In this document: positions 2,941 through 54,702 of the stretch, piece by piece
How positions within the stretch are numbered: position 1 is the stretch's first letter
Layout of the letters: each line of letters starts with the position of its first letter
Source of the DNA: an uncultured virus (IMG/VR IMGVR_UViG_3300044634_002018)
Taxonomy: Duplodnaviria; Heunggongvirae; Uroviricota; Caudoviricetes
DNA: 64,000 bases
IMG/VR virus record: IMGVR_UViG_3300044634_002018
Direction: 5' to 3' (one strand)
Notes under the pieces: generated by a model
Database searches by the model: none
Told to the model about the DNA's origin: nothing
What the model saw: only the letters and a program-made list of their open reading frames with translations
Position numbers and translations under genes: made by a program

Positions 2941-2941
2941 T

Positions 2942-3268
2942 ATGTTATTAGATATTCAAAGATTAAAAAACGGGCAATTTGCAAAGAGAAAATCTTGGGA
3001 TCCATTTTTCTTGGGGATAAGAAATTCTACTTTTTTATTGCACGAATTAGAAACAGAAAATACTGCTACAACTTCTACTAGTAGAGTGTGGAACCCATTA
3101 ACAGAAGATTTATTAGCGGATGACTGGGAGTATTTTTTAGACCCTTATGGTTATACAAAAGTAAAAGAAAATCTACCACCAGTTATTTGTGCTACTAGTT
3201 CTCATTATTATAGTGGTAAACAAAACCCGCCTATTCAACCAATGTTTTTTAAACCTTACACAAAATAA
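2942..3268 (+). CDS. DUF2829/Tad2-like protein (putative immune-signal sponge), paralog 1
   Basis: RLKNGQFAKRKSW ... WNPLTEDLLADDW matches the DUF2829 pattern LKxGxxxxRxxW ... WxPxxxDxLAxDW; start set at ATG 2942. Confidence 0.72.
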   Translation: MLLDIQRLKNGQFAKRKSWDPFFLGIRNSTFLLHELETENTATTSTSRVWNPLTEDLLADDWEYFLDPYGYTKVKENLPPVICATSSHYYSGKQNPPIQPMFFKPYTK

Positions 3269-31944: not shown

Positions 31945-34532
31945 TGTATATAAACGAATATAGCCAAGGAGTACTGCCTCAATACCAGAAGTCAAATTAT
32001 GACTTGAATCTTGAGATGGCCATACTCTCAAAGAAGAATCAAGAACAAGCCAATGCTTTAAACACGGTTAATCAACTCCAAAACAGGAGTCTTAACATTT
32101 CTATGCTTAATCTTGAGGGAGCAGAAAGACTTGCTGAGTACAATAAGCAATTATCTGCTGATCTTTCAGGGGATTTAGGGGATTTGACCATTATGGAAAA
32201 TCAAAACAAGGTGGCTGAATTGTTCCAAAAGATAAGCACTGACACTGAGTTAATTAAAGCAAGCCAACTCTCTAAACAATACCAGAAAGAATACAATGAT
32301 GTTCAGACCCTTAAAAATTCTGGAAGAAAAGACAATGGGTACAATGACATAAATGAGTTTGTGTGGATGAACTGGGATGGAGGTTATTACGATTTTATGC
32401 AAAAAGGCTTGTCTCAGGTGACTGATCCTAACTTTAGGAAATCTAGTTACACTCCTTACAAAGATTTAAAGGTTCCTCTTGCAAACCTGAGTAAATTATT
32501 ACACGCAGACTACGTAAGCAATGATAGACAGTCTGTGGATGAAAAAAACAGTCCTACTGGATACTTAACTAAACACATCTATGAAGGAGTCTCACCGGAG
32601 AGGGTTAAGGCATTGTATGATGAACAATTTGGTGCTGATGACATCTCACAGTTGGAGGTTTTGAGTAAATACGAGATTCTAAAGGCTGGTGACAAAGGTT
32701 ATCTTTATGACCAATATAAGTCAGTAGCAGATGCTGAAAACCGTGTAGAAACTGCAAGAATTTCAGAAATTTCTCAACGGATTCTGTTCAACAACGAAAA
32801 ATTAAAAACTGTTCTCAAACCAGAGGAAGAGGCACAATTAATTAAAGAGAACGAATTGTACAAAAACAACCTCCAAATCCTAGAGTCAAATGTTGCAGGA
32901 AGAGCAAACGCGGAAAAAACTAAAGAAGATTTCTTGAAACTATCCAACAACGAAATGTTAGGTTATGTGTATCAGGTAAAAAAGGCTGAAAAAGTTAAAG
33001 ATGCTGTGAATGCTTTCTCGTGGAAAAAAGAAGTAAACGAGATAAACCCGGATGCTAATTATCTTGCCCAAAAAAAGATAGATGCTATGATGGCTCAAAC
33101 TAAATTCAGAGAAGACAGCCAGACTAATAGAATGTACATCAAACATAAGTTAGATCAAGAAGTAGCAGCAACTAAAGCATTAAAAGAAAAAGAAGGGAAA
33201 GAAGACCCTTCATTGTGGTCAGATGTAGCAGACATTTCTAAGAATGAACAAGAATTGCTGAGTGGGTTTAATCGCTTGGTAACTTTACAAGAAGAATATG
33301 CAAAGAAATCAGACAATATAATTGCTGCTCCTACTCTTGACAATAACACTATTAAGGCTGAAAATTGGAGGAATTTTTACGAAAAACACAAAGGGAATTA
33401 TTATGCGGATATGTGGGACATATTCCAGACTAACAAGAATTTGGCTTATGATGTAAACGGAAACCCTAATAAAGAAGCATTCAGAGTTTGGGAAATAGAA
33501 CAAAGAAACAACCCTAACTCTCTAACAGAGGCTTTGATTAAAAACAAATCAGACAATGATTACACCTCTGAATACTTAACAGAAGAGTTAGGAAAGATTA
33601 ATGGGGCACTCAGATCTGCAAAGACTGAGACTAAAAACATACTCCCATACGCAAGAACTGAAAATGGTGACCAATTAAGTGAAGCAGATTTTCTCTCAGG
33701 TAGAGAAGTATACATTAACGTACCAACTAGTCCTAAGATTAATGGCCAACCTTACACTGGAAATTACCAGAAGAAAAAACTGAGTGAATTATTGTTTGAT
33801 TTAAAGAAAGAAAGACAAACAGAAAGTATTGAAAGCCCTGCTGCTGGTGCTATGTATGGTGTTACTCCTCGTAGTAAAGTCACTGCAAAAACTTACTTAG
33901 ACAATGATGCTGGCTTAAAACAAGTCCTAAAAACTTATGCTGATTCTCAAGAAGACCCAGTATTAAAGTCTATGCTTGCAGACAAACTCCCACAGTATCA
34001 GCAGTTTGGTTATGTGCAAACAAGTTCTCCTGATGAAATAATCCCTTATCAGGGGCAGATTAGTGCTGCTACTAAGTTAGGATCGGACCAATTTAGGACT
34101 CTGTTTGGAGTTAGTGCCATTGAGTCAATAGCTATTCCTTCTGGTTCTGGTGATAAAGGTGTTGTAAAGTTCAAGAATGAGTACGCAAAACAACTGGATG
34201 ATGCAAACATAATGATGCCAACAAGAGATGGTAATGTGATGGAAAAAGTAGTACCGGGTAAAGCATATTTGTTTGAGACTCAACCCAAGGATGGTAGAAA
34301 TGTTATGATGAATACTGCTGCTAAATACAAACCTTACAAATCTAACTATTTAGGGTATATGTTTGAAATAACCCCATCTGCTAGTGGCACTAAAGTCATC
34401 AGGGTAACTAAACCTGATGGCACTGTAATTCCTGACAAATTTGGTGGAGACAATTCAACGGACATTAATGTGTTAATTAACAGCATTCAATCATTCATAA
34501 AAACAGATTACAATGCCACCAGAAAGCCTTAG
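31944..34532 (+). CDS. Virion cargo/ejection protein (coiled-coil rich)
   Basis: 862 aa, helical, coupled in the cargo operon, no Cys seen. Confidence 0.65.
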   Translation: MYINEYSQGVLPQYQKSNYDLNLEMAILSKKNQEQANALNTVNQLQNRSLNISMLNLEGAERLAEYNKQLSADLSGDLGDLTIMENQNKVAELFQKISTDTELIKASQLSKQYQKEYNDVQTLKNSGRKDNGYNDINEFVWMNWDGGYYDFMQKGLSQVTDPNFRKSSYTPYKDLKVPLANLSKLLHADYVSNDRQSVDEKNSPTGYLTKHIYEGVSPERVKALYDEQFGADDISQLEVLSKYEILKAGDKGYLYDQYKSVADAENRVETARISEISQRILFNNEKLKTVLKPEEEAQLIKENELYKNNLQILESNVAGRANAEKTKEDFLKLSNNEMLGYVYQVKKAEKVKDAVNAFSWKKEVNEINPDANYLAQKKIDAMMAQTKFREDSQTNRMYIKHKLDQEVAATKALKEKEGKEDPSLWSDVADISKNEQELLSGFNRLVTLQEEYAKKSDNIIAAPTLDNNTIKAENWRNFYEKHKGNYYADMWDIFQTNKNLAYDVNGNPNKEAFRVWEIEQRNNPNSLTEALIKNKSDNDYTSEYLTEELGKINGALRSAKTETKNILPYARTENGDQLSEADFLSGREVYINVPTSPKINGQPYTGNYQKKKLSELLFDLKKERQTESIESPAAGAMYGVTPRSKVTAKTYLDNDAGLKQVLKTYADSQEDPVLKSMLADKLPQYQQFGYVQTSSPDEIIPYQGQISAATKLGSDQFRTLFGVSAIESIAIPSGSGDKGVVKFKNEYAKQLDDANIMMPTRDGNVMEKVVPGKAYLFETQPKDGRNVMMNTAAKYKPYKSNYLGYMFEITPSASGTKVIRVTKPDGTVIPDKFGGDNSTDINVLINSIQSFIKTDYNATRKP

Positions 34533-37500: not shown

Positions 37501-38916
37501 GGAACTCTGGCTACTGCTGATGGTATTTCAATATGGACTTTAACAAACGGGAATTTGTTACAAGATAAGATCAAGTTAAACAGACCAGAAAGACACGAGT
37601 ATTATTCATTGGATGGAGAACCAGTTATAGAGAAGGAACCAGTTACAGACTTGTTAATACCAGAAAGTTTACCGGATTCAACCAGAGCGGAATCTGTTAC
37701 AAATTTTCCTATGACTTTTGTAACAGACTCTGCAAAATTGTTCAACGGGCAATTTGATGGTTTATCAAACGGTAATATTATAGTAAAACACAACGGAGTT
37801 ACTGGTGAATTTTATTTTGACCCCAATTCCGAAACAGAAGTATTTAGTTTCATAGACAGCCATCAAAATGTAGCGGAATTAAGGGGAACAGGAAGGCCCA
37901 AGAAAGGACAAGTACAAATTACTAAAGGTACTGTAAAAGTAAAAGATGGTAAAATTTACTTGGATAAGAAAATAGTACTTACTTGGGGAAGTGAACTTGA
38001 AAAGAAAGATGAAAAAAATAAAGAAATTAATTTGAGAGACTTGCCCGATTTTAACGGTCTTACCATAAGTAAAGATGCTTTTGCTGTTTTGGATTCTATT
38101 GACTTTGGAAACAAAGACAGTGTGGATGCAGGGATTTCAAGAATATTAGAAATAGTAAACAGTAAATTTATACCCAGTGAAAAGGTTGAACAAGTACTCA
38201 GTGTTAAAAGAAAACTAATTGGTAACAGTAATTACAAAACAAAAGACTATTTAGAAAAGTATATAATTCTAAGCACCAAAGATTTTACTGGAATAGATAT
38301 TAGTACTATTTTTAATACACAATCTGAACAAGAATCTACTTTGGAAGAAAAAGCAGGTATTGTTAATACAAGAAGGCAGGAATTATTTGAAACAGGAAGA
38401 ACAAGTTTTAATGATGGGTTTATACAAAACAATGGTCCAGCATACTATGCAAACATTGGTACTTTTACTAATACAAGCGTATACACTTTTGACACTTTTG
38501 AAATGGCACACAAGTTTTTATTAGGGTATCAGGATGTTTCTAACATAGCAGAGTTTGCAGACACAATTAGATACGGAAAAGATGGAGTAGAGGCTAGGAA
38601 AAAAGAAAAGCAAGAAAAAGAAATACAAAGGAAAGTAAAGGAACTCGAAGATGACAAAGCAAGATACTTGAGAAATATAGAGTTTGATTCCGAATATAAT
38701 AGTTTTATGACAATAGGAGCACGTAGTGCAAAAACTAAACAAGAACTTATAGATAAAATCAATGCTGAAATTGACTCTAAAATAGCAGAACTTTATGGAA
38801 AGCAAGAGGCCACTTTGGAAGAAAAAATAGATTTCTTTTCAAAAGATGCTAGTAATGAATTAAAACAAGTACTTTTGCAGTCAGTGCAAAATAACCTAAT
38901 AAATTTAGATTGTTAA
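34513..38916 (+). CDS. Giant ejected protein 1 with Gly/Ala-rich membrane-inserting region
   Basis: 1467 aa; hydrophobic segments MGFTVGALANAVVVDAGISLLTAGTATPVALIAAG and EVLIGGLTGSISGAV; SEGLEEGSQY motif; only Cys is the last residue. Confidence 0.75.
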   Translation: MPPESLSEFIVPQSSEFVEPQEIQPSFLLPTVPASVVNYTPTPAGKVAPVVDSSNLLDTFLKKDLGEAKKGAPLYDYKTKQEERYSNPFMQFTPNVQGSFSTEDAYGKKQGAGEQLYNSIVKTGATAGASFISGFTSLPKQIDAIRNGSNELFTDSAFSQTQEWLKDLEDKYPNYLTQVETDRSWVVNAFTPTGAANFWGDTVLKNMGFTVGALANAVVVDAGISLLTAGTATPVALIAAGKQLSNAVKGMKAAYRGLAKGAVLGKIDDVVGLATSQGILGSLNTTNKAFGIKKAAQLTATTYFSSQGESMIEGYQTYVDTKTDLLEKAYQEGKPFTSEFLKGIDDTASAAGKNTMFLNLAITSASNLVQFPKLLGWAKGADVLEKASADYVKIAGLKATNEWSKKAAYKALAKDVFFKGIVSEGLEEGSQYFVGNSLHDYYLDKFDKKTTKGMAEYLANAVPKTLQEGDFWKEVLIGGLTGSISGAVMPGGEIQNSIKNNIFGSDRQQGITDTMNKDLDLFRASVGELSSLEDSLTNQSRTDQFQNAYKSLYRTVSNAAKFGKVEDLKSSLEDLNDLSLEEYNKAFYQDPTQGLKSDLDKSKVINKLITEVEQIQDEKIAVEKSFKSNPFSNSKVKDLLVKKFKVDQSKVSTVQQKLFEDWKENQSYLLGRLRNTQSDVFSLQEEIKLGNNNPQDSDITYATLVALGDRDTIGSYLGFKNRQIEALKNQKDYYSDLGDTLREKATSRQLLDLEVLYERISQNLDNPETLQQLILEHEYAGTASGRSLEEKMRQLEEARLQEEMIKATQEELIKNADNPEQSATDMVETLAGLDEAEQANNPDTEPIDFGPHQYYFLRTLNSGDIVNFGGKLYILGDTRGTFIGGREVGNETNTIVFGPDNYTNNGITSIYQWEITKVDAPTPAAPTPPIVQEPVNEGVRVMTDEEIEVDAYDAMVRDKAQKEKMRKENQAELDELIKGKELVKEPKKDGGRYIIKGTLATADGISIWTLTNGNLLQDKIKLNRPERHEYYSLDGEPVIEKEPVTDLLIPESLPDSTRAESVTNFPMTFVTDSAKLFNGQFDGLSNGNIIVKHNGVTGEFYFDPNSETEVFSFIDSHQNVAELRGTGRPKKGQVQITKGTVKVKDGKIYLDKKIVLTWGSELEKKDEKNKEINLRDLPDFNGLTISKDAFAVLDSIDFGNKDSVDAGISRILEIVNSKFIPSEKVEQVLSVKRKLIGNSNYKTKDYLEKYIILSTKDFTGIDISTIFNTQSEQESTLEEKAGIVNTRRQELFETGRTSFNDGFIQNNGPAYYANIGTFTNTSVYTFDTFEMAHKFLLGYQDVSNIAEFADTIRYGKDGVEARKKEKQEKEIQRKVKELEDDKARYLRNIEFDSEYNSFMTIGARSAKTKQELIDKINAEIDSKIAELYGKQEATLEEKIDFFSKDASNELKQVLLQSVQNNLINLDC

Positions 38917-39353
38917 TGAATAAATTACTGGCTATACCAGATTTTCATTTTGTATTTACTGACAACGGATGGGAGTTACTGTCTAGTATAACTTTAGACA
39001 CTGTATTTCTAACGCTTTCTGAAAATAAGATAGTATGGCAAAAGCAAACTGTTTTTACAAAATTTCATTATTCAGGAGTGTTGGACAAAACCAAGATTAA
39101 AAAAACAGAACTTGCCACTGAGTTATCCTTACTAGAGCAGTGGGAAAATTATGTAGAATTTGACGAAGTAATCCGGTTAGAACCTACATCTACATTTTTT
39201 ACAAAAGGTTGTAAGCACTTTAAAACTCACCTCACAGACCACAAAATAGTTTCACAAGAAAAAATAAATTGGGAAGGAACTTTGTACAGTTTTAACTTTC
39301 CTACTTTAGCGAGTCCTTGTATTTCAAACAAAACAGAATATTTTATTTTATGA
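38916..39353 (+). CDS. Stand-alone degenerate Hint (intein-like) domain protein
   Basis: AIPDFHFVFTDNGWELLSSITLDTVFLTL..KIVWQK...FHYSG resembles intein block A; EKINWEGTLYSFNFP resembles block F; catalytic residues absent; TAATG and ATGA coupling on both sides. Confidence 0.55.
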   Translation: MNKLLAIPDFHFVFTDNGWELLSSITLDTVFLTLSENKIVWQKQTVFTKFHYSGVLDKTKIKKTELATELSLLEQWENYVEFDEVIRLEPTSTFFTKGCKHFKTHLTDHKIVSQEKINWEGTLYSFNFPTLASPCISNKTEYFIL

Positions 39354-42300
39354 ACCTAAGTTTATTGAATTGTAAATTAATTATAAAAGACCCTTTACTC
39401 TCAAAACAACTTGGGAATAAATTCGACAACATAGAGGACTTCAAGAAAGCACTCAAAAAGGCTTTATTGGTGGACAAAAAAGCAATTCCAGTTTCTTTGG
39501 ATTTCCAAGGACAAAAAGGGGTTGCTAAAAAACTCAAGTTTTTACAAGTTATAGACACAGCAAATGGTCTTGAGGTGCAAGTTTCTTTGCCCAACCTCGA
39601 ACTGGGTAAGAACTTAAAAGGTTTAGTTAAGGGGGCTACCGTGAATAAGTACAGCATCACTATCCCTGACATTAATACGGAATTAGGAAAGGCTTCTGAC
39701 TTAGACACTCTAGCCACACTTTTCTTAGGAAACTACTTTTTACCTGATGCTTCTAATGTAAAGAATGTCCTAGAAAACCAAGTCCCTAAAATACTTGAAA
39801 AAACTGACAAACAAAGCAGCAAATTCTTAAACTCAGTAATAGGAGACAACGGGATTATTGACTATTATTTAGAGATAGCCAAGGATTTTGGCGTAGAAAT
39901 AGATGACTCAATATCTAAGTCAATAGCAGAAAAACGTGCCAATCTAGTGATGGGATTTGAGCCTGTTACACTTGATAACTTTAAGGACTACGAGGAGAAA
40001 GAGGTGGTGGCTCCAGAACCTATCACCAAAACAACTGCCTCTAAAGGGTTGATTTTCAAGACTTTCAGCACAAGTACTGATGAATTGGATTTGGCCAGAC
40101 AAGCCCTGATCTTAGGGCTAGAAGGAGAAACTAGAGTTAAAGTGGTGAGAGCCAGTGAAGATTTTGTGCAACCTTTAGCCAATGGAGTTCCTTTAACAAG
40201 GGCTCAAGTTAATTCTGGGAAAGGAGTAGTTGCTATTTTAGAAAGGAAAGAAAACGGTGTATGGAAGCCATTATATTTAACCTCTAAACCTAAACAATTT
40301 GAGGCTGGTGAATTGACTACTGATAAGTCAAAGGCGTATATATTTGATTACAAGATAGAAGAAGAAAGAAAAAGAGGTTCTCAACTTTACCTATCCGTGC
40401 CTTCTCAGAAACGTGCAGAATTTGAGCAGTTGTTGAGTGAAGGAAAAGAAATAACTTACAGGGTAGAAGCAACCTCTGTGGACAGCGAGTATAAAAGTTT
40501 TAAAGAGAGAGGAGTAACTCTTGACCAAATATTCATTCCTGATAAAGAAGCACCATTTGGGGACAGAGGTGTACCTAGATTAAGAGGGCCTAAAGGTGTT
40601 GAATTAATTTCCATTGGAACCCTTACTGATGGAGAGGAATTGCACAAAGAGGTTTTAGGGTTAATGGCAGGCGATTACAAATCTTTTGCAGAAGTTTCTA
40701 AAGTTATTAATTACCTGAACGAAATATTAATGCTAGGTGAATTCACCACTCCCAAAGATGTTCAAACATACGAAGAGGCTTTAACCAAAGGAATTAAAGT
40801 TACAAGCAGAGGAATTGCTTTTTACCCTTACAAGGAAGGTGACAATTTCAAGATAGAATATTCAGTCGAAAGGTATAAAAGTGAGGGAAGTTATGTGACT
40901 GAAACCAATCAAAAACCAGTGCGTGAAATAACACCCAAGGTTAGATTGGCTCTATTAGGTCAGAGAATACGTGTACCCAAAACATTCGAGGGAAACAGTG
41001 TAGGTAGTTACACCAAAAGGTTAACTTATGACAATGGTATTAAAGACACCTTATGGCCCAAACCTGAACAGGAAGAATATTTACTAGGAAAACTAAGCAC
41101 TAGATTAACCCAAGTAAACGGTAGGTTGGGTTATGCAGAAAACTATGTATTTACTTACGATAGGGACAGACTTGAAGTTTCTGATATTCAAGAGGTTCAA
41201 GATTTCCCAGTAGGAACAGTTCCTATCAATTCAATCAAAGGGGAACCACTAAGCGAGCAAGGTGAATTGGTTTATTCTCTTTTGAAAGAGGGTAAGTCAG
41301 TCAATTTCCTGTCTGATGCTGAAATGGACAAATTAGGCACTGACTTAATAGCAGCCTATACTAATGGTCAAATTTATTTAAGGGCTTCCCAAATTACCAA
41401 GGGAAATGTAAAAGGATACGTACTTGAAGAATTGATCCATGCTTACACAGCAGATAATTTAGGCTCCCAAAAAGACACAGTAGAATACCAAGAATTAGAC
41501 AGACTAAGAAACCATCTTAGAAGTATGTATAGTATTGACAGAATGCAGTATTATACAGAAAGCATGGAAGAGTTTGTAACTTCCTTGACTATGCCTTTTA
41601 TGCAGGACTTGATTAAAGAATCAGGTTTTACTTATGAGACAACAAGCAACCAAGGAATTTACGAATACATTCTTGGTCTTTTAAATGAGTTAATGTCTAA
41701 AATAGCCAGTTTATTCTACGAGAATCCAAGCATACAAGAGCAAGTTACTTTTGATCTTCTCAAATTGATATTTAACAGGACTTCAAAAGTTCAACAATTT
41801 GTAGAAAATGTACCCTCGGAGATAGGACCTAAGAAAAGAACTTTAGTAAGCAAGAAAAAAATACTAGGTTCATTTGACCGTGTACCAGAAATACCTGTTG
41901 CTCATTTAGACATGTTACTCTCGAATCTGGCATGGGATATAGGGCAGTTTGCTGATCTTTTAAATGGAGATTTGGATGCTGAATTGGTTAAAGAAGTGCT
42001 ATTAGAAGAGTTAGAATTAGAATCTAAAGACCCTTTAAGGGCTGAGTATCTTAAACCTTTCTTGAAAGACTTTGATGCTACTTTTGAGACTTGGTTAAAA
42101 TCCTCAAAACTAGCGGAACTTGAAGTAAAAGACAAAACTCAGTCTGATACCGAGACTAAATTTCAAGACAGAACAGAAAGTTCTATCAGTTCAGTAGATG
42201 CTGGTACTAAATATGCGAGAGTGTTTATTAAAATGATTCCTAAGATCCTCCTAGAAGATGGGGAACCAGTAATGGATAATGGACAGTATGTTTATGCCAA

Positions 42301-45300: not shown

Positions 45301-48300
45301 AGAAGTGTTACCTGCTGATTGTATGGTCACACTTTCAGGGGATTTTTTGAATCTTTTGAACCTCCCAGAAGTAACTAATAACACTCTCGAAGAACTCAAC
45401 GAGTTATTAAAAGACAAGGCTTTCCGCAAAAAATATAAAAAAGAATTAACTCTTTCTGCTTATCGTATTCCAACACAAGGTCTGAACTCTATGGACATAT
45501 TTATGGTCAAGAGATTCTTGCCTCAATGGATGGGTAATACTATTGTACCACCCCCACAAATTGTTACCAAATCAGGTACGGATTATGACTATGATAAGGA
45601 AAGTGTAATTTTACCTTCTATTGGTAAGAACGGTAGGTACATAACTGCTCCCAATGAAAACTATTTGTCAGAAAAATATGAGCAATTGTACGAGGAGTTA
45701 ATGAGTCAAATAGACATTATTAAGTCTTCCCCTCTTTCTCAGATTTTAGGGATTATTTCTGACAAGTCTGGATTTAATGTAAATGAAGATATAATTGATA
45801 TAGTAAAATCTCGTCTTGTTAAAAAAGGTGAGGTTATAACAAAAGAAGCATTTATTCAGGCTGCCAAAGATAGCGTGTTCAAACAAGTAAAACACAACAA
45901 AGTCTTAGAAGCAAGCAAAGACATAGTTTTGAATCCTGTCAATTTCCACAGGTTAATCACCCCCAATACTGATGCTCTTATCAAGGGTGCAGTAGAAGAA
46001 GTGACTGCTAAATTGTATCCGGGTGTAGGTAAGGTAAATGCAGAGCCTCAATTGAGTAGAGTGTTCAGTTACACTACTCACTTAAAGAAATGGAAAGCAG
46101 TTAAGATTAAAGACCTCTTAGGGATAGGTGCTGTTGCAAACACTTTCTACACGTTAATGCAAACAGTAGATTTTAAACTCAATAGTTTTTTGACTATCAA
46201 TGAAGTAGGCTTTGAGTTTAATGTACCTTTGTTGACCGAGGAAGAACAAAAATTGGTAAAAATTTCAGACCCTTTTATCATTGACAAAGAGAGAACTACG
46301 TTAGATAAGTTAGAGATCATTAACCAGTTCATCAATATCACAGTGGATGCTGCTTCTAATGACATTGCAGGTTACACGAATCTTATCTCAGACAATACAG
46401 GATTTGTGATGTTTCAGACTATGCTTGGAACTCCTTTACCAAAAGTTCTTAAACTTCTTCACCAGCCTGAGATTTACACGTACCACCAAAAAATAAACGT
46501 ATTGGTAGGAAAGGGTTATTCAAGAGGAGAGGCTAAAAAAGAAGCCATGCTTGAACTGTTAGAAATAGACCCTGTAATAGTCACTCAAGACGGAACATTT
46601 CCCAAGTCCAACAAAAAAATATGGGAAGACATTAAACGCATAGGTTACTCTAATCCTTTGAACTTGAGGGAAATACAACCTCTTGGTTCTAGGTCAACTT
46701 TCAACAAAGAAGTCCTAGTGTATTATCTTGTGGGCTTAGCACAAGCAGATGCACTGCGTAAAGTCCAAAGCAAAAATAACTTTGACACCAGTACTAACCC
46801 TTCTTACAAAATGAGTAACATCCAAGAAGAAAATCCTGATGTAGAAGTTGATGGACTTTTCAGCCTTGAATCCTCTGATAAAATTCACAATGATTCTGTA
46901 ATTTCCCACTTGAATGTCCACGAAGAGTTTAAGTTAATATCCGAGGCTGCTTTTGGAATCAAAAACGATAAAGTATTTGTAGATTTTGTGACCCAAAAAG
47001 GGCTAGGAGTTAAAAGTGATAAAGAGAAATTCGTAAGGGTTATTGACAATGACTTCTTAATGGCCATTATTCAGAATTTAGGAAATGAAGATCTGGTAGA
47101 GGTTCAGAATCTAATGACTGGCCCACTAATGGATACTTGGGCGAATTTAAAAGAAAAGTACCCGGAATTAAAAGACACAGTATTAGGTTCTAAGTTAATT
47201 GCAGACAGGTACGAAGATTTTGTAAATCCTATGTATTTTGTAGGCTTAGACAATGACACGGATACTTATGACACACTCGCTCAAGACATCCAAAATTTAC
47301 TAAACGGAACACCAGATCAAGCACAATTTGCTAAAGATCTGGTTAGGGTTGCCTTCTTTCAGAGTGGTTTCAACCAGAGTAAGTTGTATATGTTAAAGGG
47401 TATTCCTCCAAGTATGATTACTGCAATCACTTCCGAGGCTTACACAAAGTTCACTAGACTAGGTGAGAAACAGAAACAAGAGTTCATCAATAAATTCTGG
47501 CAGAAGTTTTTACAAAACCGAGTATTAGAATTTGGTAGTTCTTTTGTCAAAGAGTATAATCCTGCTGGTGTTAATGCGGTTAAAGCAATGTTTGACAAAA
47601 GGAATTTCAGATTTATGAAATACCAGTTTGATTTTAACGAGCAAGTCCAAAGCATACCTGTTACCATTGAAATTACACCTAAATCAACTAATTACACCGA
47701 GCATACTTTATACTCAGGTGATGCAATCGGTGCTGATAAACTGTGGGCTGCACAAAGTAAAGAATTTGGAGTAGGTAAAACAGTCAATTATAAAGTTGAA
47801 ACTTTAAACTCATTAACTAAGCCTCAACAAGAAGAAGTGGAGTCTGCTTATTTGAAAGCAAAAGATGATTTGGGTAGAAAAACTCTGTCTTACAACTGGG
47901 TTAGTCCTCAAAGAGAAGATTATGTGGGTGGTTTAGTAAGAAGGGATTATTTACAGGCAAAAGCAGCAGATGCTATTTTTGCAATAAGTGATATAATTGG
48001 AGTTGGAGAAAAAGGTAAAGCATCCAAAGGTACCAGATACACCAGCAAATCTAGTAAAGAAATAGTTGATGGTGGTACAGGTTATGCAGTACAAATGGCT
48101 ATTAATTTAGGAAAACCTGTTTATGTGTTTCACCAAGGTACTAATTCTGACAACAAAGCAAGTGTTGGTTGGTACAAGTGGGATTACAGCACTGAAAAAT
48201 TTGTTTCAGTACCTACACCAGTATTGACTAAAAAATTTGCAGGTATTGGTACTCGTGAAATTAATGAAGCAGGTAAGCAAGCAATCAAAGAAATATTTAA

Positions 48301-48847
48301 TAATTCTGTAAACACTCCTAGTGTTGAACCAGTATCTGTGACAAATCAAAATGTGTTTTCTTGGAATGCAGTAAAGCAAACCTTGGGGATTAAACCTTCT
48401 TTTGAAAATTCCCCTTTAACAGAAAAAGAAATATCTAAAATTTCATTTGAACAAATAGAAGAAAGACAAAGGTTTCCTCAAAGTAAAACTGATATTCTTG
48501 CTTCTGATTTTGGAGGGAAAAAAGGAGTAAGGTTAACAGCAGAAACTTTTAAACGTAACTTTGATAAAAACTGGTTACAAGAAAGAGGAATTAATTACGT
48601 ATCCAACAAAGGTCAATCACTTGATCTCTATCTTGAGGACTTGAATGACACTTATAAGTTAGGATTTACAGTAGATGACGTAATAGATTTTATTTCTGAG
48701 AATAAGTCTCCAAGTGCATATTGGATTTCAGAACAGAAAAGAATAGAGACTGCTTTAAGGTCTGAAATTAGTTCTCCTTTATTAGATGATAAAGTCGTAG
48801 ATTTGTGCGCAATTAAAGGCAAACCTAACAATAACATACCATTTTAA
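39350..48847 (+). CDS. Giant virion-packaged double-psi-beta-barrel RNA polymerase (crAss-like), with zincin-like and SLOG-like accessory domains
   Basis: YRIPTQGLNSM followed by KSGTDYDYDK (DxDxD at 45581-45595); GDGEGW, KLG and ITVDAA motifs; EELIH at 41426; start at ATG 39350, 3165 aa. Confidence 0.9.
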   Translation: MNLSLLNCKLIIKDPLLSKQLGNKFDNIEDFKKALKKALLVDKKAIPVSLDFQGQKGVAKKLKFLQVIDTANGLEVQVSLPNLELGKNLKGLVKGATVNKYSITIPDINTELGKASDLDTLATLFLGNYFLPDASNVKNVLENQVPKILEKTDKQSSKFLNSVIGDNGIIDYYLEIAKDFGVEIDDSISKSIAEKRANLVMGFEPVTLDNFKDYEEKEVVAPEPITKTTASKGLIFKTFSTSTDELDLARQALILGLEGETRVKVVRASEDFVQPLANGVPLTRAQVNSGKGVVAILERKENGVWKPLYLTSKPKQFEAGELTTDKSKAYIFDYKIEEERKRGSQLYLSVPSQKRAEFEQLLSEGKEITYRVEATSVDSEYKSFKERGVTLDQIFIPDKEAPFGDRGVPRLRGPKGVELISIGTLTDGEELHKEVLGLMAGDYKSFAEVSKVINYLNEILMLGEFTTPKDVQTYEEALTKGIKVTSRGIAFYPYKEGDNFKIEYSVERYKSEGSYVTETNQKPVREITPKVRLALLGQRIRVPKTFEGNSVGSYTKRLTYDNGIKDTLWPKPEQEEYLLGKLSTRLTQVNGRLGYAENYVFTYDRDRLEVSDIQEVQDFPVGTVPINSIKGEPLSEQGELVYSLLKEGKSVNFLSDAEMDKLGTDLIAAYTNGQIYLRASQITKGNVKGYVLEELIHAYTADNLGSQKDTVEYQELDRLRNHLRSMYSIDRMQYYTESMEEFVTSLTMPFMQDLIKESGFTYETTSNQGIYEYILGLLNELMSKIASLFYENPSIQEQVTFDLLKLIFNRTSKVQQFVENVPSEIGPKKRTLVSKKKILGSFDRVPEIPVAHLDMLLSNLAWDIGQFADLLNGDLDAELVKEVLLEELELESKDPLRAEYLKPFLKDFDATFETWLKSSKLAELEVKDKTQSDTETKFQDRTESSISSVDAGTKYARVFIKMIPKILLEDGEPVMDNGQYVYAKDKNGNLIPSDYTTLWNSIADAVHGSLDIEEIKEKLKGYKKLPEMNIVLERLEQLTGTGDSAYEEMFILKGIEQSFSKVLVPTIIVKQKEINSKDNWYEQEEYGEPVYEEEMFEQEFAGLNTQYSKERPDRKFSYDIFESGRLDAQNIKSAMLDSFKAFADKEFDELTPNSLLDYLNKELKTIRGGYTEDSIKKVMKNFGVNITSQMESYPTVRNEVYSVSGNFLTKLVNKLEYVKNTELEITFDIFDFLENAQEIDGKKFIGYKGVVLDFQNTMSKYLPYSTSNMTKNPEGKNQSNLHNFSSYLLNIKFINEGNFERVERLRNPIAKYSLALNAVKGGAKITPLNVSGTQFLENGTNTISLPTIEYVRQELVTVLEGGFKENLRAETASSSFGFRVAYGKSSTVAGTYLPLGTKNVIENAKVQFKQYLKGELERVWLERNEPTKYGSKFYENKKQGLTFFSFLDDTFLTDLDLVSLEQVSQFVEDRKEEFYEQFEAYFEAQKQDFKNWILQETGQPVDESHPIFLSQLQKEASEDLEGLLDKFLLNSLVMSIEEIILFHGELGQFDKIYKRLKSNISNGTPFVMSQAAQTVFKERLQGGTFSEAFGVRPEYYNDTTKMKSIVLKEAKMKASPEQIKNLTEGAKNSLKLTDEFFGRTPENLEERASEVVAPYGNSTKEDGPSSDIGDGEGWVHPDAYRIMCQAVNSWGPEKEEGFQYLATKFKKEKGFIISEQEQVLFEQVELNIKEKGWYFQFPKLKFQYRGSARPASKTNVAVELLDKFALTPLFPDFIKGTLAEQHFEQMSKQGIAYGKFQSGTKLGTFNADDWQVVKEYESVHEIDTVYLKEQVKTPDYIKTENLMGSQKRKLVLSNISLNGEFMNSLKSAVGNWIEGQRELAENARETLMKDLGAEDGQVDVYKVVELIKEELESRDLPLAYTELFDNYSGQNLEESLSPQSVETLIYSLLKNRIVKAKFPGGQLVQVAPALFGAEELEFYRYENGEVLPADCMVTLSGDFLNLLNLPEVTNNTLEELNELLKDKAFRKKYKKELTLSAYRIPTQGLNSMDIFMVKRFLPQWMGNTIVPPPQIVTKSGTDYDYDKESVILPSIGKNGRYITAPNENYLSEKYEQLYEELMSQIDIIKSSPLSQILGIISDKSGFNVNEDIIDIVKSRLVKKGEVITKEAFIQAAKDSVFKQVKHNKVLEASKDIVLNPVNFHRLITPNTDALIKGAVEEVTAKLYPGVGKVNAEPQLSRVFSYTTHLKKWKAVKIKDLLGIGAVANTFYTLMQTVDFKLNSFLTINEVGFEFNVPLLTEEEQKLVKISDPFIIDKERTTLDKLEIINQFINITVDAASNDIAGYTNLISDNTGFVMFQTMLGTPLPKVLKLLHQPEIYTYHQKINVLVGKGYSRGEAKKEAMLELLEIDPVIVTQDGTFPKSNKKIWEDIKRIGYSNPLNLREIQPLGSRSTFNKEVLVYYLVGLAQADALRKVQSKNNFDTSTNPSYKMSNIQEENPDVEVDGLFSLESSDKIHNDSVISHLNVHEEFKLISEAAFGIKNDKVFVDFVTQKGLGVKSDKEKFVRVIDNDFLMAIIQNLGNEDLVEVQNLMTGPLMDTWANLKEKYPELKDTVLGSKLIADRYEDFVNPMYFVGLDNDTDTYDTLAQDIQNLLNGTPDQAQFAKDLVRVAFFQSGFNQSKLYMLKGIPPSMITAITSEAYTKFTRLGEKQKQEFINKFWQKFLQNRVLEFGSSFVKEYNPAGVNAVKAMFDKRNFRFMKYQFDFNEQVQSIPVTIEITPKSTNYTEHTLYSGDAIGADKLWAAQSKEFGVGKTVNYKVETLNSLTKPQQEEVESAYLKAKDDLGRKTLSYNWVSPQREDYVGGLVRRDYLQAKAADAIFAISDIIGVGEKGKASKGTRYTSKSSKEIVDGGTGYAVQMAINLGKPVYVFHQGTNSDNKASVGWYKWDYSTEKFVSVPTPVLTKKFAGIGTREINEAGKQAIKEIFNNSVNTPSVEPVSVTNQNVFSWNAVKQTLGIKPSFENSPLTEKEISKISFEQIEERQRFPQSKTDILASDFGGKKGVRLTAETFKRNFDKNWLQERGINYVSNKGQSLDLYLEDLNDTYKLGFTVDDVIDFISENKSPSAYWISEQKRIETALRSEISSPLLDDKVVDLCAIKGKPNNNIPF

Positions 48848-48849
48848 AT

Positions 48850-51800
48850 ATGTGTAACGTAACAACAACAAGAGCAAAAACTAAAGCACACCTAGTTACA
48901 AATGGTGTTATAGATAAATGGAACAACATTCTGAACCTAAATGAGTTCAGAAAAGTGAACAGGTTATACTCCGAAAATGCTACCAGCAGGTTTGGCACTC
49001 CTAAACTTATGTTTGAGGAAAACGGTAAAGTTATTTTTAATGAAAGTGCATTCAGATTAATAGATGCTCACAAGGGAATAAATTACCCTGATAACTTGGA
49101 GGAGCAGAAAATAGTTAATTCCTCGAACTACCAGTTAAACCCGGAACCATTTAGTACTGTACCAGAACCTATACTTGACACGTTAAGAAATTTTTTACTG
49201 CGAGTGAACCCAGATTTCAGGTTAGAAACTTTGGATGAATTGAATGACAACCAAGGTATTAGTGTAGGTGCTGTCACTAAGTTGAATGAATTTCTGATTC
49301 AGATTAAACGAGGCAATGAGTCTGCAATTCCAGAAGAGGTTGCTCACGTGTTTGTAGAAATGTTAGACAAAGGGAGCAAATTGTACAAAGAAATGGAATC
49401 CAGCATTACCATGACCAAGATGTACCAACATGTCCTCAAGGAATATGGGAGTCATCCTGAGTACAAGGGAAACTACGAAAAATTAAAAAGAGAGGCTATG
49501 GCCAAGTTAGTCTCGCTTTACACCCACAATAAAGCCTTGGCTGCGTATTATTCTGGTTCCCCTGATCTGTGGAATAAAATGAGGTCTATAATTCAAAACA
49601 TCATACTACGGGTTAAGGGTTTAAAGAATCCTTTTAATCAAGCAGCAATGAGAATTTTAAGTCTTGAAACAACCGAGTTACTCTACTCGAATGCTATGTT
49701 ATCGGATACTATGTATCAAATTCACGACTTGAGTGATTTCAGACAATTCCAAACTTTAAACAAAGATTTGGGAGATTACGATACTGTCTTAATCAATGTG
49801 AATGATTCACTCCTTGACTTAAAGAACTATACTATTCCAGACAGACCGTCTCGAAGAGACCCTGAAAAGATTATCCCCGGAAAAGCAATCAAGGGTAGAA
49901 TGTGGTCAATACCTAACAGTGAAGACCTCAAAAAATATTACACTAATTCCCGTTTAACAAAACTAGGCAGGGAACTCAAGGACAAAATCAAAATAGTAGG
50001 ATCCAGTAAATTTGTATTCTTTACGAGTGGTGAAATCACCCAAGAATTAAGGGACAGATTAGAAAATGAATTTGGACCTGTCAAGTTAGTTTCTACTCGT
50101 CAAGAAGACATGCTAGAGTCAGAAGATGGTACTTTCATAATGGACCCTGTTTCCAAACTTGACATAGTAGAACAAGAAAAGAAAGGAAATACTTTAGTAG
50201 TGGATAACACCAAGGACTTCTCAGGCACTGACACTGACTTTGTTTACTATAACAATGGAAAAGTAAAGTACACTGATTACGGGGAGATGATGAAAAGAAG
50301 AGCAATCGAGGCAGAAGCAAAAGAGTTCAGTGAGGTTGTCCTAGAAGAGTTTAAAAAATTATCCCCTGACAATATAGTGAACTTGGCTAAACCTGCTTTA
50401 AAGTTAATTTCTCGGATAGTAAATCGAATAGAGAACGAAGATGCAAATGAGGAAGGAGCAGATGGACTCTCAGACTTATTTAAAGACAAATTTGGAAACC
50501 TCACCATTCCTATTGACAGAGCCAGACAAATCATACGCCAACTTGAGGAAAATTCAGTAGAGTTTTCACAAGGGCTTTTAAACTTTGTAAATTCAATAGG
50601 CTCTACTACTCTTTTTTGGGAGAATGCAAACAAGGCCGACTTTCAATATTTGAGAACTCTCTTAGAAGGGAGTAAAGAAGACGTGAATAAAGGAATCAAA
50701 GATGCTGCTGTTTTAATGAGAATGATTCTTCAATGGGAAGACTGGTTAAAAAGCATTCAACCTATCCTTTCTCATCCTGACTTTCAAGAAACCAAGGTTC
50801 TCAAGGAAAGGTTTGCTGCTTTAGGAACTGCTCTTAGAATCTCCAAGGAAAGAATTAACAAACTTTCCGTGGATTTACTCACCACTCAATTGGCAGATGT
50901 GGGCAAAGATTACAACGTGGGTAAAATGGCTGCTTTAAGGGCAGGACAAATTACTCAAGAAGAATATGATGAGGCAATTATAACACCTCAAAAATTAGCC
51001 AATATTATCTTTGGTTTAGAGGGTGATGTGGCAATGAGTGCTTACTTTGAAAACTCTTTATTTATCGGGGATGATTTAATTCAGACTGTTTCCACAGTAG
51101 TAGAAAGGTCTATTATAGGAGCCAACCAAGTTTCCCTAGCCAACAGTGTTGAGTTAATCAATGACTTAGGAACTAAGGAAAACAATGAAGCAGTAGGAGC
51201 CAGAATCACAGGCATAGACAAAGAAAATTACATTAAAGAGGATGGCACTATGGACCAAAGAGATGTCTTGATGTTTCATAGTCCACATAAAAACGTATGG
51301 GTAAGAAGAGCCAAAGAATTTGAGGTAGAACAGTTAAGAAAGAAATTCTATGAGGCCAAGGCTTTGGGGGAGGACACTCCTGAAACACTAGAGGCTCATA
51401 GAGTTTACGAAGAAGCATTTAAGGAATTTAAGGCTTGGGAAAAAGCAAACTGGAATCGTGAGTTCCAAACAGAAACTTGGGAAATATACGAGAAATTCGG
51501 GCTGGTAGGTGAAGATTTTGACAGAGCATTAGAAGCACAAGAAAGATTATGGGATGAAAAGAAATCTTTAGTTGCCGAGTTGAAACAACCCCACATAGAA
51601 AAAGAAGAACAAATTATATTACAGGCTAAGATCACAAATATAGAAAACAGGATCAAGAATCTAAGAAATCCTTTTGATGTAGAGACAAACCGGAATAAAG
51701 AAGTCAATAATGACCCAGAAAAAGACAAAAGAATTTCTGATGTCTTAAAAAGAAAACATATTATAGACCGCCAATTGTATGATTATAAAATAGACAATAA

Positions 51801-54702
51801 ACGGTTTTTAAAGGATCTCAATGAAAGGATTAGTCAATTGGCAGACTTAGACCTTCAAAGGGACTTGTCTGATCTTTTAGACACTAACAACCCGTTATGG
51901 TTGAATGAGTTAAAAGCATTAGCAGAAGCCCGTGCTCCACAAACTTTTATAGACTGGGTAGAATTGAACACGAAATTTACTTACTCGGAATCATTTTATG
52001 AGAATAGGAAAAAGATTATAGACGACTTAAAAGGAGCAATCAGTCAACTAGGAGCCTTACTCTCTAAGGATCAACAAGAAGCACTAGAAGAATCCAACAA
52101 GGCTTTGCAAAGTTCTTGGGAGGAACTATTCAACATTTCATCTTCCCTTCGAGACGAGAATGGAGTATTTGATGCTTCTGACTCCTCACTCGAACATCAA
52201 GAGTTAATAAAGCAAGCAGAAACCGAAATTAATATCCTAAAGGCTCTAATAAAGGAGCAGAGTTCAAGTTTAGACAGTGATGTTGCTAAAGCCTTGAGAA
52301 AAAAAATTATAAAGGTTATTGAAGAGTTGAGTGATCTTCAAAGCAAGCAGCCCACTGACTATTATAATGAAGTAATGTTTGCTAAATTAGAAAAGATCTA
52401 CCCAAAAGAATTAGGAAGAGTATTTGAAAATGAAGACTTTCTAGCCTTGGTAAGAAGTTCTAAATTTCAGACCTTTTTGCAAACTGCTCCTCAAGATTTC
52501 TTAGACTGGTTTAACACGAACCATTTTATGAAGGAATACGAGGAGGATGGTGAAGTCGTAGTGGATTATAAACCTACTTATATTTGGATGAAAATAACCC
52601 CAAACAACACCGAGGATATTCTTTTGATCCCTAACCAGAAATACTCCAACCGAAAGATAAAAGATAACGTAGTAGTAGAGTTTGAGGACAGGGTAGAATT
52701 TTTTCAGATCAAGACAGAGAAGAATGAAAATACTTGGGATGATGTAACCGAGCAATGGTTGCCAAAATCTGACGAGTTTAGGAACGAAGCATATTATAGC
52801 ATGAATGCTTCGGACAGAGCATACCACAAAAAGTTGGTAGATTTTTACCGTAAGGTTCAAAAAGATGCCCCTAAAAACACACGTATGGGTTATAAAGCCC
52901 CGTTTATGCACAAGACATTTACTGATGGTGGTGGGCTAGCCTCTTTATGGAAGTCATTTACTGAAAACATAAACCCGGTAGAAAGTGGTGAAGAAAATGC
53001 CACGCCTTTAAGGAGTAAGTTTGCAGACAGATTAAGAGCATTTGTGGGATTAGAGACTAAGGCTCAAAGAGAAGTCCAGACTGATCTTTTAGGGAACAAG
53101 ATTTCTAGTATTCACACTCCTTATAAAAATTACATAGAAGAGAAGGATGTGACCAGAGATGTGTTAACATCGGTGCTTAACTATTCAGAAGGACTAGAAA
53201 GAACCAAAGCATTAATAGGTAATGTTCCAGAACTTAATCTTTTAGAACAACTATTAGAGCAGTTTAATCCTTTTGAAAAAGACCTTTTAGGTACTGGTGG
53301 TAGAAGGGTCAAAACAGGCAAGAATCGGAGATTAGAAGTAATCCAAAACATCAAGAAAACCAAATTGTATGGAGATGTCAAGGATTACGAACTAGGAAGA
53401 GGTTTGGACAAGGCTACCTTAATGATGAGAAACTGGACTTCACTGTTTTCTCAATCTATTATTAACCCGGCCAACTCCCTAAAGAACTACATTCAAGGCA
53501 TGCTCACCAACATTATTTCTGTGGATGCAGATTGGGCAGACTCTAGGAGTATAATGAAAGCCATGAAATCTGCAAAGACTTCTTTCATTCCGTTTATAAG
53601 TGAATTAGGAAACCAAAAGAAAAGCCTTGACTTTCAAATTGTTACACTATTCAACTTGTCTATGTCACAAAATGTAACTGACTTGTTTAGTAAGACTGCC
53701 TTAAAAAGACAACTTGATCCATTTGGAAAATTCAAGTACATAAGTTCTGAGGCTGCTGAATTTTCAGTCACTACCACTTTACTTTACGCTCATTTGTTCC
53801 ACAAAAAAGTAATGATAGATGGAGTAGAAAAACCATTATATGATGTTTTTTATTTAGACAATGGAGTGTTAAAAATTAAGGAGGCTAAAGACGGGGACAA
53901 AGTAGTAAATCAAGACTACATCAATGAGTTGGTCTTGAAAACCAAAGTAATCACAGAGCATGTGCAAGGAAAACAATTCAACTCCACTGTGGCTCAAAGA
54001 TTCACTATATGGAGAAATTTTGAGTTTTTTAAAAAATATTTCATTCCCAAACTGCGGGAAAGATTCGTGGGAAAACGGAAAAACCTAGTAATGGGGAATG
54101 ATATAGAAGGGTTTTATGTTACTACTTTCAAACGGTTTCTCTTAGAAGTCTTGAGTTATCTTGATAATGGTAGATTTTCAGGTGTAGCAATGTCTCCACT
54201 TGAGATAGTGGCAAGAAGAAAAATGACACGCGAGTTAATTACTATGTTAAGCACTTATCTTTTAATCACTTTCTTATTTGGGTATGATGATGACGATGAA
54301 GAAAAAAATGACAAGTTAAAAGAAAACAGTTGGGCAACTAATTTTTCTCTTATGACCATGCTTGCTGCAAAGAAAGAAACAGATGCTGCTTCTATCATAC
54401 CTTTACTTAACACTCAGGAATCCATGATTCCCCCTCTTTTTAACGAGACTTATAATTTCGTAAAAGAGCCTTTTATGGGATTTGGATTATTTGAACAAGG
54501 AAAGAAATTAATAGATGCCTCATTTACACACGTCTTTAACAATGAAGATGCTTATTATGACGCAGACATGAAGGCTTATTTTATAGAAGAGGGAGACTCC
54601 AAATTAGGACACAGACTAAAAAAACTCATGCACTATGATGCCATTTTATATTTAGGAAGTCCAGAATATAAAATACAAAGCACACAATCTTTTGCTAAGT
54701 AA
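48850..54702 (+). CDS. Giant ejected protein 3 (zincin-like N-terminus, helical, C-terminal hydrophobic segment)
   Basis: 1950 aa; PEEVAH at 49333 and REAMAK; FFKKYFIP...EGFY motif; ELITMLSTYLLITFLFG hydrophobic segment; only Cys is residue 2. Confidence 0.75.
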   Translation: MCNVTTTRAKTKAHLVTNGVIDKWNNILNLNEFRKVNRLYSENATSRFGTPKLMFEENGKVIFNESAFRLIDAHKGINYPDNLEEQKIVNSSNYQLNPEPFSTVPEPILDTLRNFLLRVNPDFRLETLDELNDNQGISVGAVTKLNEFLIQIKRGNESAIPEEVAHVFVEMLDKGSKLYKEMESSITMTKMYQHVLKEYGSHPEYKGNYEKLKREAMAKLVSLYTHNKALAAYYSGSPDLWNKMRSIIQNIILRVKGLKNPFNQAAMRILSLETTELLYSNAMLSDTMYQIHDLSDFRQFQTLNKDLGDYDTVLINVNDSLLDLKNYTIPDRPSRRDPEKIIPGKAIKGRMWSIPNSEDLKKYYTNSRLTKLGRELKDKIKIVGSSKFVFFTSGEITQELRDRLENEFGPVKLVSTRQEDMLESEDGTFIMDPVSKLDIVEQEKKGNTLVVDNTKDFSGTDTDFVYYNNGKVKYTDYGEMMKRRAIEAEAKEFSEVVLEEFKKLSPDNIVNLAKPALKLISRIVNRIENEDANEEGADGLSDLFKDKFGNLTIPIDRARQIIRQLEENSVEFSQGLLNFVNSIGSTTLFWENANKADFQYLRTLLEGSKEDVNKGIKDAAVLMRMILQWEDWLKSIQPILSHPDFQETKVLKERFAALGTALRISKERINKLSVDLLTTQLADVGKDYNVGKMAALRAGQITQEEYDEAIITPQKLANIIFGLEGDVAMSAYFENSLFIGDDLIQTVSTVVERSIIGANQVSLANSVELINDLGTKENNEAVGARITGIDKENYIKEDGTMDQRDVLMFHSPHKNVWVRRAKEFEVEQLRKKFYEAKALGEDTPETLEAHRVYEEAFKEFKAWEKANWNREFQTETWEIYEKFGLVGEDFDRALEAQERLWDEKKSLVAELKQPHIEKEEQIILQAKITNIENRIKNLRNPFDVETNRNKEVNNDPEKDKRISDVLKRKHIIDRQLYDYKIDNKRFLKDLNERISQLADLDLQRDLSDLLDTNNPLWLNELKALAEARAPQTFIDWVELNTKFTYSESFYENRKKIIDDLKGAISQLGALLSKDQQEALEESNKALQSSWEELFNISSSLRDENGVFDASDSSLEHQELIKQAETEINILKALIKEQSSSLDSDVAKALRKKIIKVIEELSDLQSKQPTDYYNEVMFAKLEKIYPKELGRVFENEDFLALVRSSKFQTFLQTAPQDFLDWFNTNHFMKEYEEDGEVVVDYKPTYIWMKITPNNTEDILLIPNQKYSNRKIKDNVVVEFEDRVEFFQIKTEKNENTWDDVTEQWLPKSDEFRNEAYYSMNASDRAYHKKLVDFYRKVQKDAPKNTRMGYKAPFMHKTFTDGGGLASLWKSFTENINPVESGEENATPLRSKFADRLRAFVGLETKAQREVQTDLLGNKISSIHTPYKNYIEEKDVTRDVLTSVLNYSEGLERTKALIGNVPELNLLEQLLEQFNPFEKDLLGTGGRRVKTGKNRRLEVIQNIKKTKLYGDVKDYELGRGLDKATLMMRNWTSLFSQSIINPANSLKNYIQGMLTNIISVDADWADSRSIMKAMKSAKTSFIPFISELGNQKKSLDFQIVTLFNLSMSQNVTDLFSKTALKRQLDPFGKFKYISSEAAEFSVTTTLLYAHLFHKKVMIDGVEKPLYDVFYLDNGVLKIKEAKDGDKVVNQDYINELVLKTKVITEHVQGKQFNSTVAQRFTIWRNFEFFKKYFIPKLRERFVGKRKNLVMGNDIEGFYVTTFKRFLLEVLSYLDNGRFSGVAMSPLEIVARRKMTRELITMLSTYLLITFLFGYDDDDEEKNDKLKENSWATNFSLMTMLAAKKETDAASIIPLLNTQESMIPPLFNETYNFVKEPFMGFGLFEQGKKLIDASFTHVFNNEDAYYDADMKAYFIEEGDSKLGHRLKKLMHYDAILYLGSPEYKIQSTQSFAK

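Follow-up and report, generated by a model that had tools for sequence, protein, structure and literature searches.

Giant cargo proteins of crAss-like phages carry a cysteine (Cys) at those ends where one protein of the set adjoins the next, and this terminal-Cys pattern is a deep rule across the phage order rather than an outcome of chance. The case described here comes from a 64,000-nucleotide (nt) stretch of DNA from an uncultured virus (IMG/VR record IMGVR_UViG_3300044634_002018), at its full length referred to as the window, in which the protein g1, a virion RNA polymerase and the protein g3 are best explained, from their sequences, as the polymerase-associated set of cargo proteins in a crAss-like phage. 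We consider it probable that the three form a head-to-tail chain, a 'virtual polyprotein' of ~6,600 residues, with the terminal Cys paired, most likely as disulfides.

Terminal cysteines in the window and its relatives

All Cys of the three proteins are listed in Table 1. Both the positions that the initial annotation had assigned to them, in proteins of 1467, 3165 and 1950 amino acids (aa), and the claimed absence of Cys from the two outer ends, the N-terminus of g1 and the C-terminus of g3, were confirmed from the open reading frames (ORFs) of the window. The C-terminal Cys of the polymerase lies 12 residues before the last residue, and the g3 start is found 2 nt past the polymerase stop. 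The probability of at least 4 of the 6 Cys falling by chance within the four junction-facing 13-residue ends, considering 6582 residues, is P = 5.8e-8, calculated post hoc.

Table 1. Coordinates of the chain proteins and of further features in the window
Feature	Position	Strand	Remarks
Chain member 1 (g1)	34513..38916	+	1467 aa; single Cys, in last position (codon 38911-38913)
Chain member 2 (virion RNA polymerase)	39350..48847	+	3165 aa counted from the ATG; Cys8 (39371-39373), Cys1684 (44399), Cys1991 (45320), Cys3153 (48806-48808)
Polymerase catalytic DxDxD motif	45581..45598	+	DYDYDK, residues 2078-2083
Chain member 3 (g3)	48850..54702	+	1950 aa; sole Cys is residue 2 (48853-48855)
Inserted ORF	38916..39353	+	145 aa; Cys99 and Cys135, neither terminal; not part of the chain
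Crassvirus muzzle protein	22972..27054	+	PF25731, E-value 2e-21
Upstream protein	28756..31944	+	1062 aa; with the next, 0 Cys in 1924 residues
Upstream protein	31944..34532	+	862 aa

The proposal that the middle protein is a crAss-type RNA polymerase is supported by the DxDxD motif and by tblastn matches to annotated RNA polymerases. The aspartates D2078, D2080 and D2082 are invariant in the polymerase alignment (A3), and a DFDxD motif of crAss RNA polymerases is named in a published abstract. Residues 1819-2233 match the annotated RNA polymerases of DAC17, Kolpuevirus ('putative RNA polymerase') and crAssphage (gp44), and a hidden Markov model (HMM) made from A3 matches g066 of phi14:2 and Gp50 of crAss001. 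Searches of Pfam, PHROGs and PDB sequences assigned no name to the polymerase, and those of PDB sequences with all three chain proteins returned nothing relevant. The flanking proteins are recognizable, with g1 being orthologous to crAss001 Gp47 (BLASTP E-value 2e-15) and phi14:2 g067 (2e-8), and g3 to crAss001 Gp49 (3e-7) and phi14:2 g065 (1e-3). A polymerase motif, two giant flanking partners and a virion gene block, three marks of the Crassvirales virion RNA-polymerase module, are present.

Next, conservation of the individual Cys was assessed. Cys1467 of g1 is invariant in the g1 alignment (A2), Cys2 of g3 in 23 aligned rows, and polymerase Cys8 in 26 of the 26 rows of A3, which had mostly been picked among matches having Cys8. 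The 7 closest of these 26 rows retain the internal polymerase residue Cys1991 (45320-45322), which is replaced by Val elsewhere, and Cys1684 (44399-44401) is kept in 2 of 26. Database homologues, compared down to ~20% identity for the polymerase, display the same distribution. All 15 homologues of g1 possess a single Cys, which takes the last or the penultimate position, and none an N-terminal one (0/15). Among the 29 homologues of g3, Cys is present at residue 2-4 in 28, no other Cys in 25, and a C-terminal Cys in none. For the polymerase family (n = 57), Cys is found within the first 8 residues in 46 and within the last 16 in 53 members, while 38 lack any other Cys.

We then turned to 160 related loci from viral contigs, retrieved with the family alignments and subjected to ORF calling; the search with A2 recovered only 3 loci, and A3 was used instead. 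ORFs were assigned to families by HMM, independent of Cys, and ends were counted non-redundantly at <60% identity. Cys was detected at 0 of 18 N-termini and 40 of 40 C-termini of g1, at 41 of 51 N-termini and 88 of 90 C-termini of the polymerase, and at 80 of 81 N-termini and 0 of 66 C-termini of g3. Each of the 13 exceptions has an explanation: 8 are N-extended fusions, 2 are C-terminal fusions (loci L066 and L140), and 3 stem from frameshifted contigs (L061, L095 and L156). The 8 exceptional polymerase ORFs bear an N-terminal extension of 420-1190 residues, identified as gene 1 only in L082 and L091; in L085, L104, L138, L140, L142 and L148 a gene-1 part was not detected by the g1 HMM or by a broader g1b HMM made from 17 ORFs picked by position, with a weak BLASTP match to gene 1 (E-value 8e-4) for the L140 extension only. 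Regarding the frameshifts, L095 has a normal polymerase start with Cys at residue 4 in another frame directly after the gene-1 stop, two frames overlap in L061, and L156 is a broken copy of L160. Down to 20-25% identity, close to 100% of the terminal Cys are conserved. The initial annotation had staked its proposal on conservation of the terminal Cys and of their polarity in orthologues, and both turned out to be near perfect.

Cultured and prototype phages follow suit. The perfect case is phi14:2, where the only Cys of g067 (1797 aa) is its last residue, the polymerase g066 (2180 aa) possesses only Cys3 and Cys2179, and g065 (1421 aa) only Cys3. Gp47, Gp50 and Gp49 of crAss001, as well as 56, 58 and 57 of DAC17, equally represent a set with C-terminal only, N- plus C-terminal and N-terminal only Cys. 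The phi14:2 gp67-gp66-gp65 and crAss001 Gp47/Gp50/Gp49 trios are orthologous to the window trio and share this pattern; the window proteins are larger than these orthologues and 20-27% identical to them. In both phages, mass spectrometry identifies these orthologues as components of the virion (record notes; PMC10172136). In Intestiviridae (crAssphage, Rudgehvirus and cr110_1), a zincin protein with C-terminal Cys only is followed by a fused polymerase with N-terminal Cys only. The fused 4460-aa protein of cr10_1 (L166) has a Cys 10 residues from its end, and an unannotated ORF with Cys at residue 5 follows its gp32, after position 19755.

Some further observations concern protein starts and ends. 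In cr110_1 gp40 (L168 12310-12360), M15-S-C would form a canonical start, and the annotated start is probably 14 codons too early, as judged from the sequence. Similarly, a TTG at 39365 would let the window polymerase begin as M-N-C, with the usual M-x-C spacing, as compared to Cys8 when counted from the ATG at 39350; either start is possible. At the other end of this protein (48806-48847, + strand), the window lineage has 4-15 residues beyond the C-terminal Cys, ending in a conserved [IVYT]-P-F, a tail that is carried by P0045-P0053, P0062, P0069, P0070, L120 and L158. In most other lineages the polymerase ends 0-2 residues past the C-terminal Cys.

Cysteine depletion, gene splits and gene fusions

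The terminal Cys stand out against a nearly complete lack of internal ones. In 317 unique chain ORFs, comprising 711,668 residues, 423 Cys are present in total, 381 of them terminal and 42 internal. The internal Cys frequency is 0.0059%, as compared to 1.08% in a control of 456 other ORFs from the same loci. Control ORFs have Cys in the first 8 residues in 40 of 456 cases and in the last 16 in 55 of 456. As chain membership was defined by Cys pairs, this comparison is independent for the internal depletion alone.

To relate the two sides of each junction, 182 non-redundant boundaries between consecutive ORFs of at least 400 aa were evaluated with an 8-residue end cut-off, outside which the C-terminal end of the window polymerase falls. 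Cys is present on both sides at 138 boundaries, on neither at 40 and on one side only at 4, and 2 of these 4 prove two-sided on inspection. The corresponding Fisher P of 2e-35 overstates the case, because the relatives are not independent. Boundaries are short, 20 nt or less, in most cases (42/44 and 73/85). At two sites a terminal Cys is followed by a Cys-free protein: crAssphage gp47 (L001 694-3267) has a single, penultimate Cys and the next protein, gp46, none, and an 1125-aa protein of L081 (3418-6795) ends with two Cys, the last of which is penultimate.

The Cys are seen to follow the boundaries when these move. Polymerase splits occur near HMM positions 2330 in L091, 595 in L122 and ~900 in L005, and each new boundary comes with a Cys pair. 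Extra middle proteins of 417-950 aa are located between the polymerase and gene 3 in L083, L003, L013, the L041 group, L113 and L085, each with exactly one Cys per end. On the other hand, fused proteins lose the junction Cys: the fused ORFs of L066 (4100 aa) and L056 (3542 aa) contain 0 Cys, L140 combines all three parts in one 5002-aa ORF from which the terminal Cys are absent, and crAssphage gp44, a fusion of the polymerase and the gene-3 part, possesses Cys3 and no C-terminal Cys. The total chain length amounts to ~5,000-7,500 aa whether it is made up of 1, 2, 3 or 4 proteins, in a set where the chain definition uses the Cys rule itself and where the L061 and L095 rows are frameshift artefacts. 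In a FastTree phylogeny of the polymerase core (100 representatives), the state of the g1/polymerase junction changes at least 3 times and that of the polymerase C-terminal end at least 2 times.

A probable disulfide chain and its alternatives

A pairwise head-to-tail link represents the simplest reading of these data, since each junction end bears a single Cys and each boundary two, with the outer ends free of them. In such a chain, Cys1467 of g1 would pair with Cys8 of the polymerase, and polymerase Cys3153 with Cys2 of g3, the junction Cys being bonded as disulfides inside the particle. Separately made proteins would in this manner become one linear N-to-C chain with a fixed order and a 1:1:1 ratio, and other Cys would have been purged so that wrong cross-links cannot block the passage through the tail. 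The chain may then be ejected as one thread, N-terminal end first, and thioredoxin-type reduction in the host cytoplasm would free the subunits. Disulfides are the most likely chemistry because no further ligand residue is conserved beside the Cys, because the internal Cys purge fits thiol-disulfide chemistry, because crAss001 virions contain disulfides, in the tail and in gp57 (PMC10172136), and because a pair with matching signature in cyanophage A4 is a disulfide (PMC12002296); we infer that the junction disulfides form in crAss particles. The pairing of the first with the second and the second with the third protein, as put forward by the initial annotation, is hence partly borne out, in that it fits both the behavior of Cys upon gene fission and fusion and the A4 precedent. 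The sequence context around the Cys differs between the first and the second junction, which could provide pairing specificity, while charge complementarity of the paired ends gave no clear signal. Complex prediction with the C-terminal 120 residues of g1 and the N-terminal 130 residues of the polymerase, using the window sequences alone, resulted in a score of 0.02, which carries no weight for or against the link.

Several points weigh against a disulfide chain. Chemical or structural evidence for the bond was found in no crAss-like phage, and oxidation is hard to place in time and mechanism, given that assembly occurs in a reducing cytoplasm and that many of the hosts live anaerobically. The initial description of termini facing each other in gene order captured the Cys at the junction ends, but was too narrow: genes 1 and 2 of the window, otherwise ordered as described, are not adjacent but separated by the 145-aa ORF, which had been overlooked, and the gene with C-terminal Cys only is on the opposite strand in crAss001, DAC17 and IAS virus. 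The IAS virus proteins moreover keep the terminal Cys yet carry many internal ones, and the Cys of the window polymerase, at residue 8 and 12 residues ahead of the last one, are farther from the ends than the usual positions, which are residues 3-5 and 0-2 from the end. A terminal Cys without partner is present in crAssphage gp47 and in the 1125-aa protein of L081. The counts are also phylogenetically non-independent, and the fusions alone prove no pairing, because a general purge of internal Cys would equally predict loss of the junction Cys. The new splits are the stronger argument for the same reason.

Alternatively, the paired ends may dock by sharing a metal ion, or associate non-covalently with assistance of the thiols, without any disulfide. 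Such a bridge would be workable in the reducing cytoplasm where the particles assemble, acidic and amide residues that often directly precede the C-terminal Cys (N/D at -3 and -4 of the first junction, E/D at -4 to -6 of the second) could add ligands, and the co-variation with splits and fusions fits any pairwise link. There is however only one Cys per end, with no conserved His or second Cys within 6 residues, the near-total internal purge is a prediction of thiol-disulfide chemistry, and the A4 pair of matching signature is a disulfide (PMC12002296), rendering the metal or docking form unlikely. A single site uniting four Cys around a metal was rejected on the Cys counts, with 2 Cys-bearing ends per boundary in 2-, 3- and 4-protein chains, a number that is partly given by construction. 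The bonds could also form no earlier than in the host periplasm, once the proteins have been ejected, and would there lock an envelope-spanning ejection complex, with no chain inside the particle. This timing removes the problem of oxidation in the cytoplasm, and the scarcity of Cys among ejected proteins has been linked to their transit of the oxidizing periplasm (PMC11445570). We find it quite unlikely, considering that the polymerase needs the cytoplasm to transcribe, that the A4 bond is seen in the intact virion (PMC12002296) and that crAss001 virions already contain disulfides (PMC10172136).

It is very unlikely that the terminal Cys act singly, for example as a portal or capsid anchor or as a modification site, and are unpaired with each other. 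The few terminal Cys lacking an evident partner, in crAssphage gp47 and the L081 protein, are congruent with such a role, but junction Cys are present on both sides or neither (138 and 40 of the 182 boundaries, with at most 2 truly discordant), the outer ends never have Cys (0/18 and 0/66), and new splits gain both Cys together. Finally, the Cys may be neutral leftovers tolerated only in floppy ends, or the boundaries gene-calling artefacts. Ejected proteins of other phages are indeed Cys-poor without any chain (PMC11445570), and three apparent exceptions in our data were assembly frameshifts. The window pattern has however a very low chance probability (see above), the terminal Cys are kept at close to 100% down to 20-25% identity, with strict polarity, and genuine stops mark the boundaries, which often contain inserted genes or separate genes on opposite strands. 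Chance or artefact is therefore extremely improbable, being contradicted by the homologue, boundary and HMM-family counts. Returning to the disulfide chain, a wider version of it would apply to the polymerase cargo throughout Crassvirales, which, at a roughly constant overall length, could be cut almost anywhere provided that the ends gain Cys, with a disulfide taking the place of the missing peptide bond, would leave as a single thread and would contain a redox switch that keeps the polymerase subunits tethered and inactive until reductases of the host cytoplasm sever the links; we put this forward tentatively, as a possibility rather than an expectation.

Genomic context and comparison with known systems

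Gene content identifies the window as a crAss-like virion module, with Crass_capsid, CrAss_Ring_2 and CrAss_Ring_1 (Pfam) encoded upstream of the trio, together with the muzzle protein. For the two Cys-free proteins encoded directly before g1, a weak crAss_CARG1 match was obtained (25.6 bits, under the cut-off of 27), and Cys is missing from both sides of the gene boundaries here. The two probably represent further cargo, outside of the chain. The ORF inserted between genes 1 and 2 is tightly embedded, its ATG overlapping the TAA of g1 and its TGA the ATG of the polymerase. It has no match in Pfam or PHROG, and a weak tblastn match (22% identity, E-value 4e-4) in the equivalent gap of L083/L084. 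Other loci with inserted genes between chain members are L083, L095, L104, L111, L114 and L144.

Additional features of the window and its relatives were recorded. Residues 2775-2983 of the polymerase (47672-48298, + strand) correspond to a DprA-like domain (PHROG 768), a segment that is 40% identical to a stretch annotated inside the virion RNA polymerase of Pylas, an N4-like phage of Klebsiella; the domain is also present in jumbo-phage records, and looks from these sequence matches to be shared between unrelated virion polymerases. At 5218-8406 (+ strand), a 1062-aa protein with 14 Cys combines LAGLIDADG homing-endonuclease domains with a weak Hint match, and is probably an intein-bearing protein. 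A 122-aa protein at 2900-3268 (+ strand) contains a Tad2-like (Thoeris anti-defence 2) domain (PF11195, E-value 1.6e-6, above cut-off). Records of Intestiviridae annotate phage thioredoxin genes near the module, in crAssphage (L001; gp39/gp37) and Rudgehvirus (L167), and a thioredoxin-like domain was found in none of the 22 window ORFs scanned.

The crAss-like phages are the most abundant human gut viruses. How they pack a cargo of ~5 MDa and force giant proteins, for instance a polymerase of 3,000 residues, through their narrow tail has yet to be explained (PMC10172136). A chain linked covalently from head to tail, if true, would account for protein order and stoichiometry and for the manner in which each protein draws its successor through the tail, as well as for the Cys purge; if the redox-switch reading is also true, transcription would start only inside a living cell. 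The rule serves in addition as an annotation aid, indicating true protein ends, wrong starts (cr110_1 gp40) and frameshifted assemblies (L061, L095 and L156).

Two well-known principles resemble the proposed arrangement. In two-chain AB toxins, a single interchain disulfide tethers cargo that crosses a narrow channel unfolded, and reduction in the cytosol releases it, and by analogy the crAss mechanism may work alike. These toxins are however one nicked gene product, of non-phage origin, and not a head-to-tail chain of separate products; to our knowledge there is no homology between them and the crAss chain proteins. Split inteins rejoin separately encoded pieces of one protein post-translationally in head-to-tail order, and the junction likewise contains Cys. 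Such a process was rejected for the trio: Pfam detects no Hint or intein domain in the three chain proteins, only 0-12 residues extend beyond their terminal Cys, and a peptide bond is not expected.

No description of the crAss terminal-Cys rule was found in the literature searched, which excluded supplements and most subscription journals, and the terminal Cys are not mentioned in the main text of PMC10172136 and of bioRxiv 10.1101/2020.03.07.982082. Already known are the Cys suppression of N4-like phages (PMC11445570) and the single disulfide of A4 (PMC12002296). Ejection proteins of N4-like phages (Schitoviridae) suppress Cys to 0.00075% in gp71 homologues (PMC11445570). As in the crAss-like phages, giant ejected proteins, the virion RNA polymerase included, are almost free of Cys. 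The N4-like proteins described there lack Cys at their ends too, whereas the crAss-like ones keep exactly the junction-facing terminal Cys. The trio of the window accordingly differs from the Schitoviridae type, with 6 Cys, 4 of which are at junction-facing ends.

The closest parallel is provided by cyanopodophage A4 (Anabaena phage A-4L), where cryo-electron microscopy reveals a Cys1715-Cys5 disulfide between gp27 and gp26 in the pre-ejectosome (PNAS 2025, PMC12002296), treated in the text of that report as a structural detail, not a rule. In its sequence, the only Cys of gp27 (1717 aa) is at 1715, and that of gp26 (1114 aa), encoded by the next gene, at 5. A4 gp27 and gp26 are ejected internal proteins from adjacent genes, a fate that is probable for the window trio as well, and in both systems Cys is found near the C-terminal end of the upstream and the N-terminal end of the downstream protein. 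The window likewise has a C-terminal Cys upstream, a Cys within the first 8 residues downstream and proteins otherwise nearly free of Cys. BLASTP of A-4L gp25-gp29 against five window proteins yielded only noise (best E-value 0.10) and no homology; judging from these comparisons, the window would work like A4 without being a member of the gp27/gp26 protein family. While A4 has one link between two proteins, neither of them a polymerase, the crAss-like phages display a chain of 2-4 proteins whose Cys track splits and fusions across the order.

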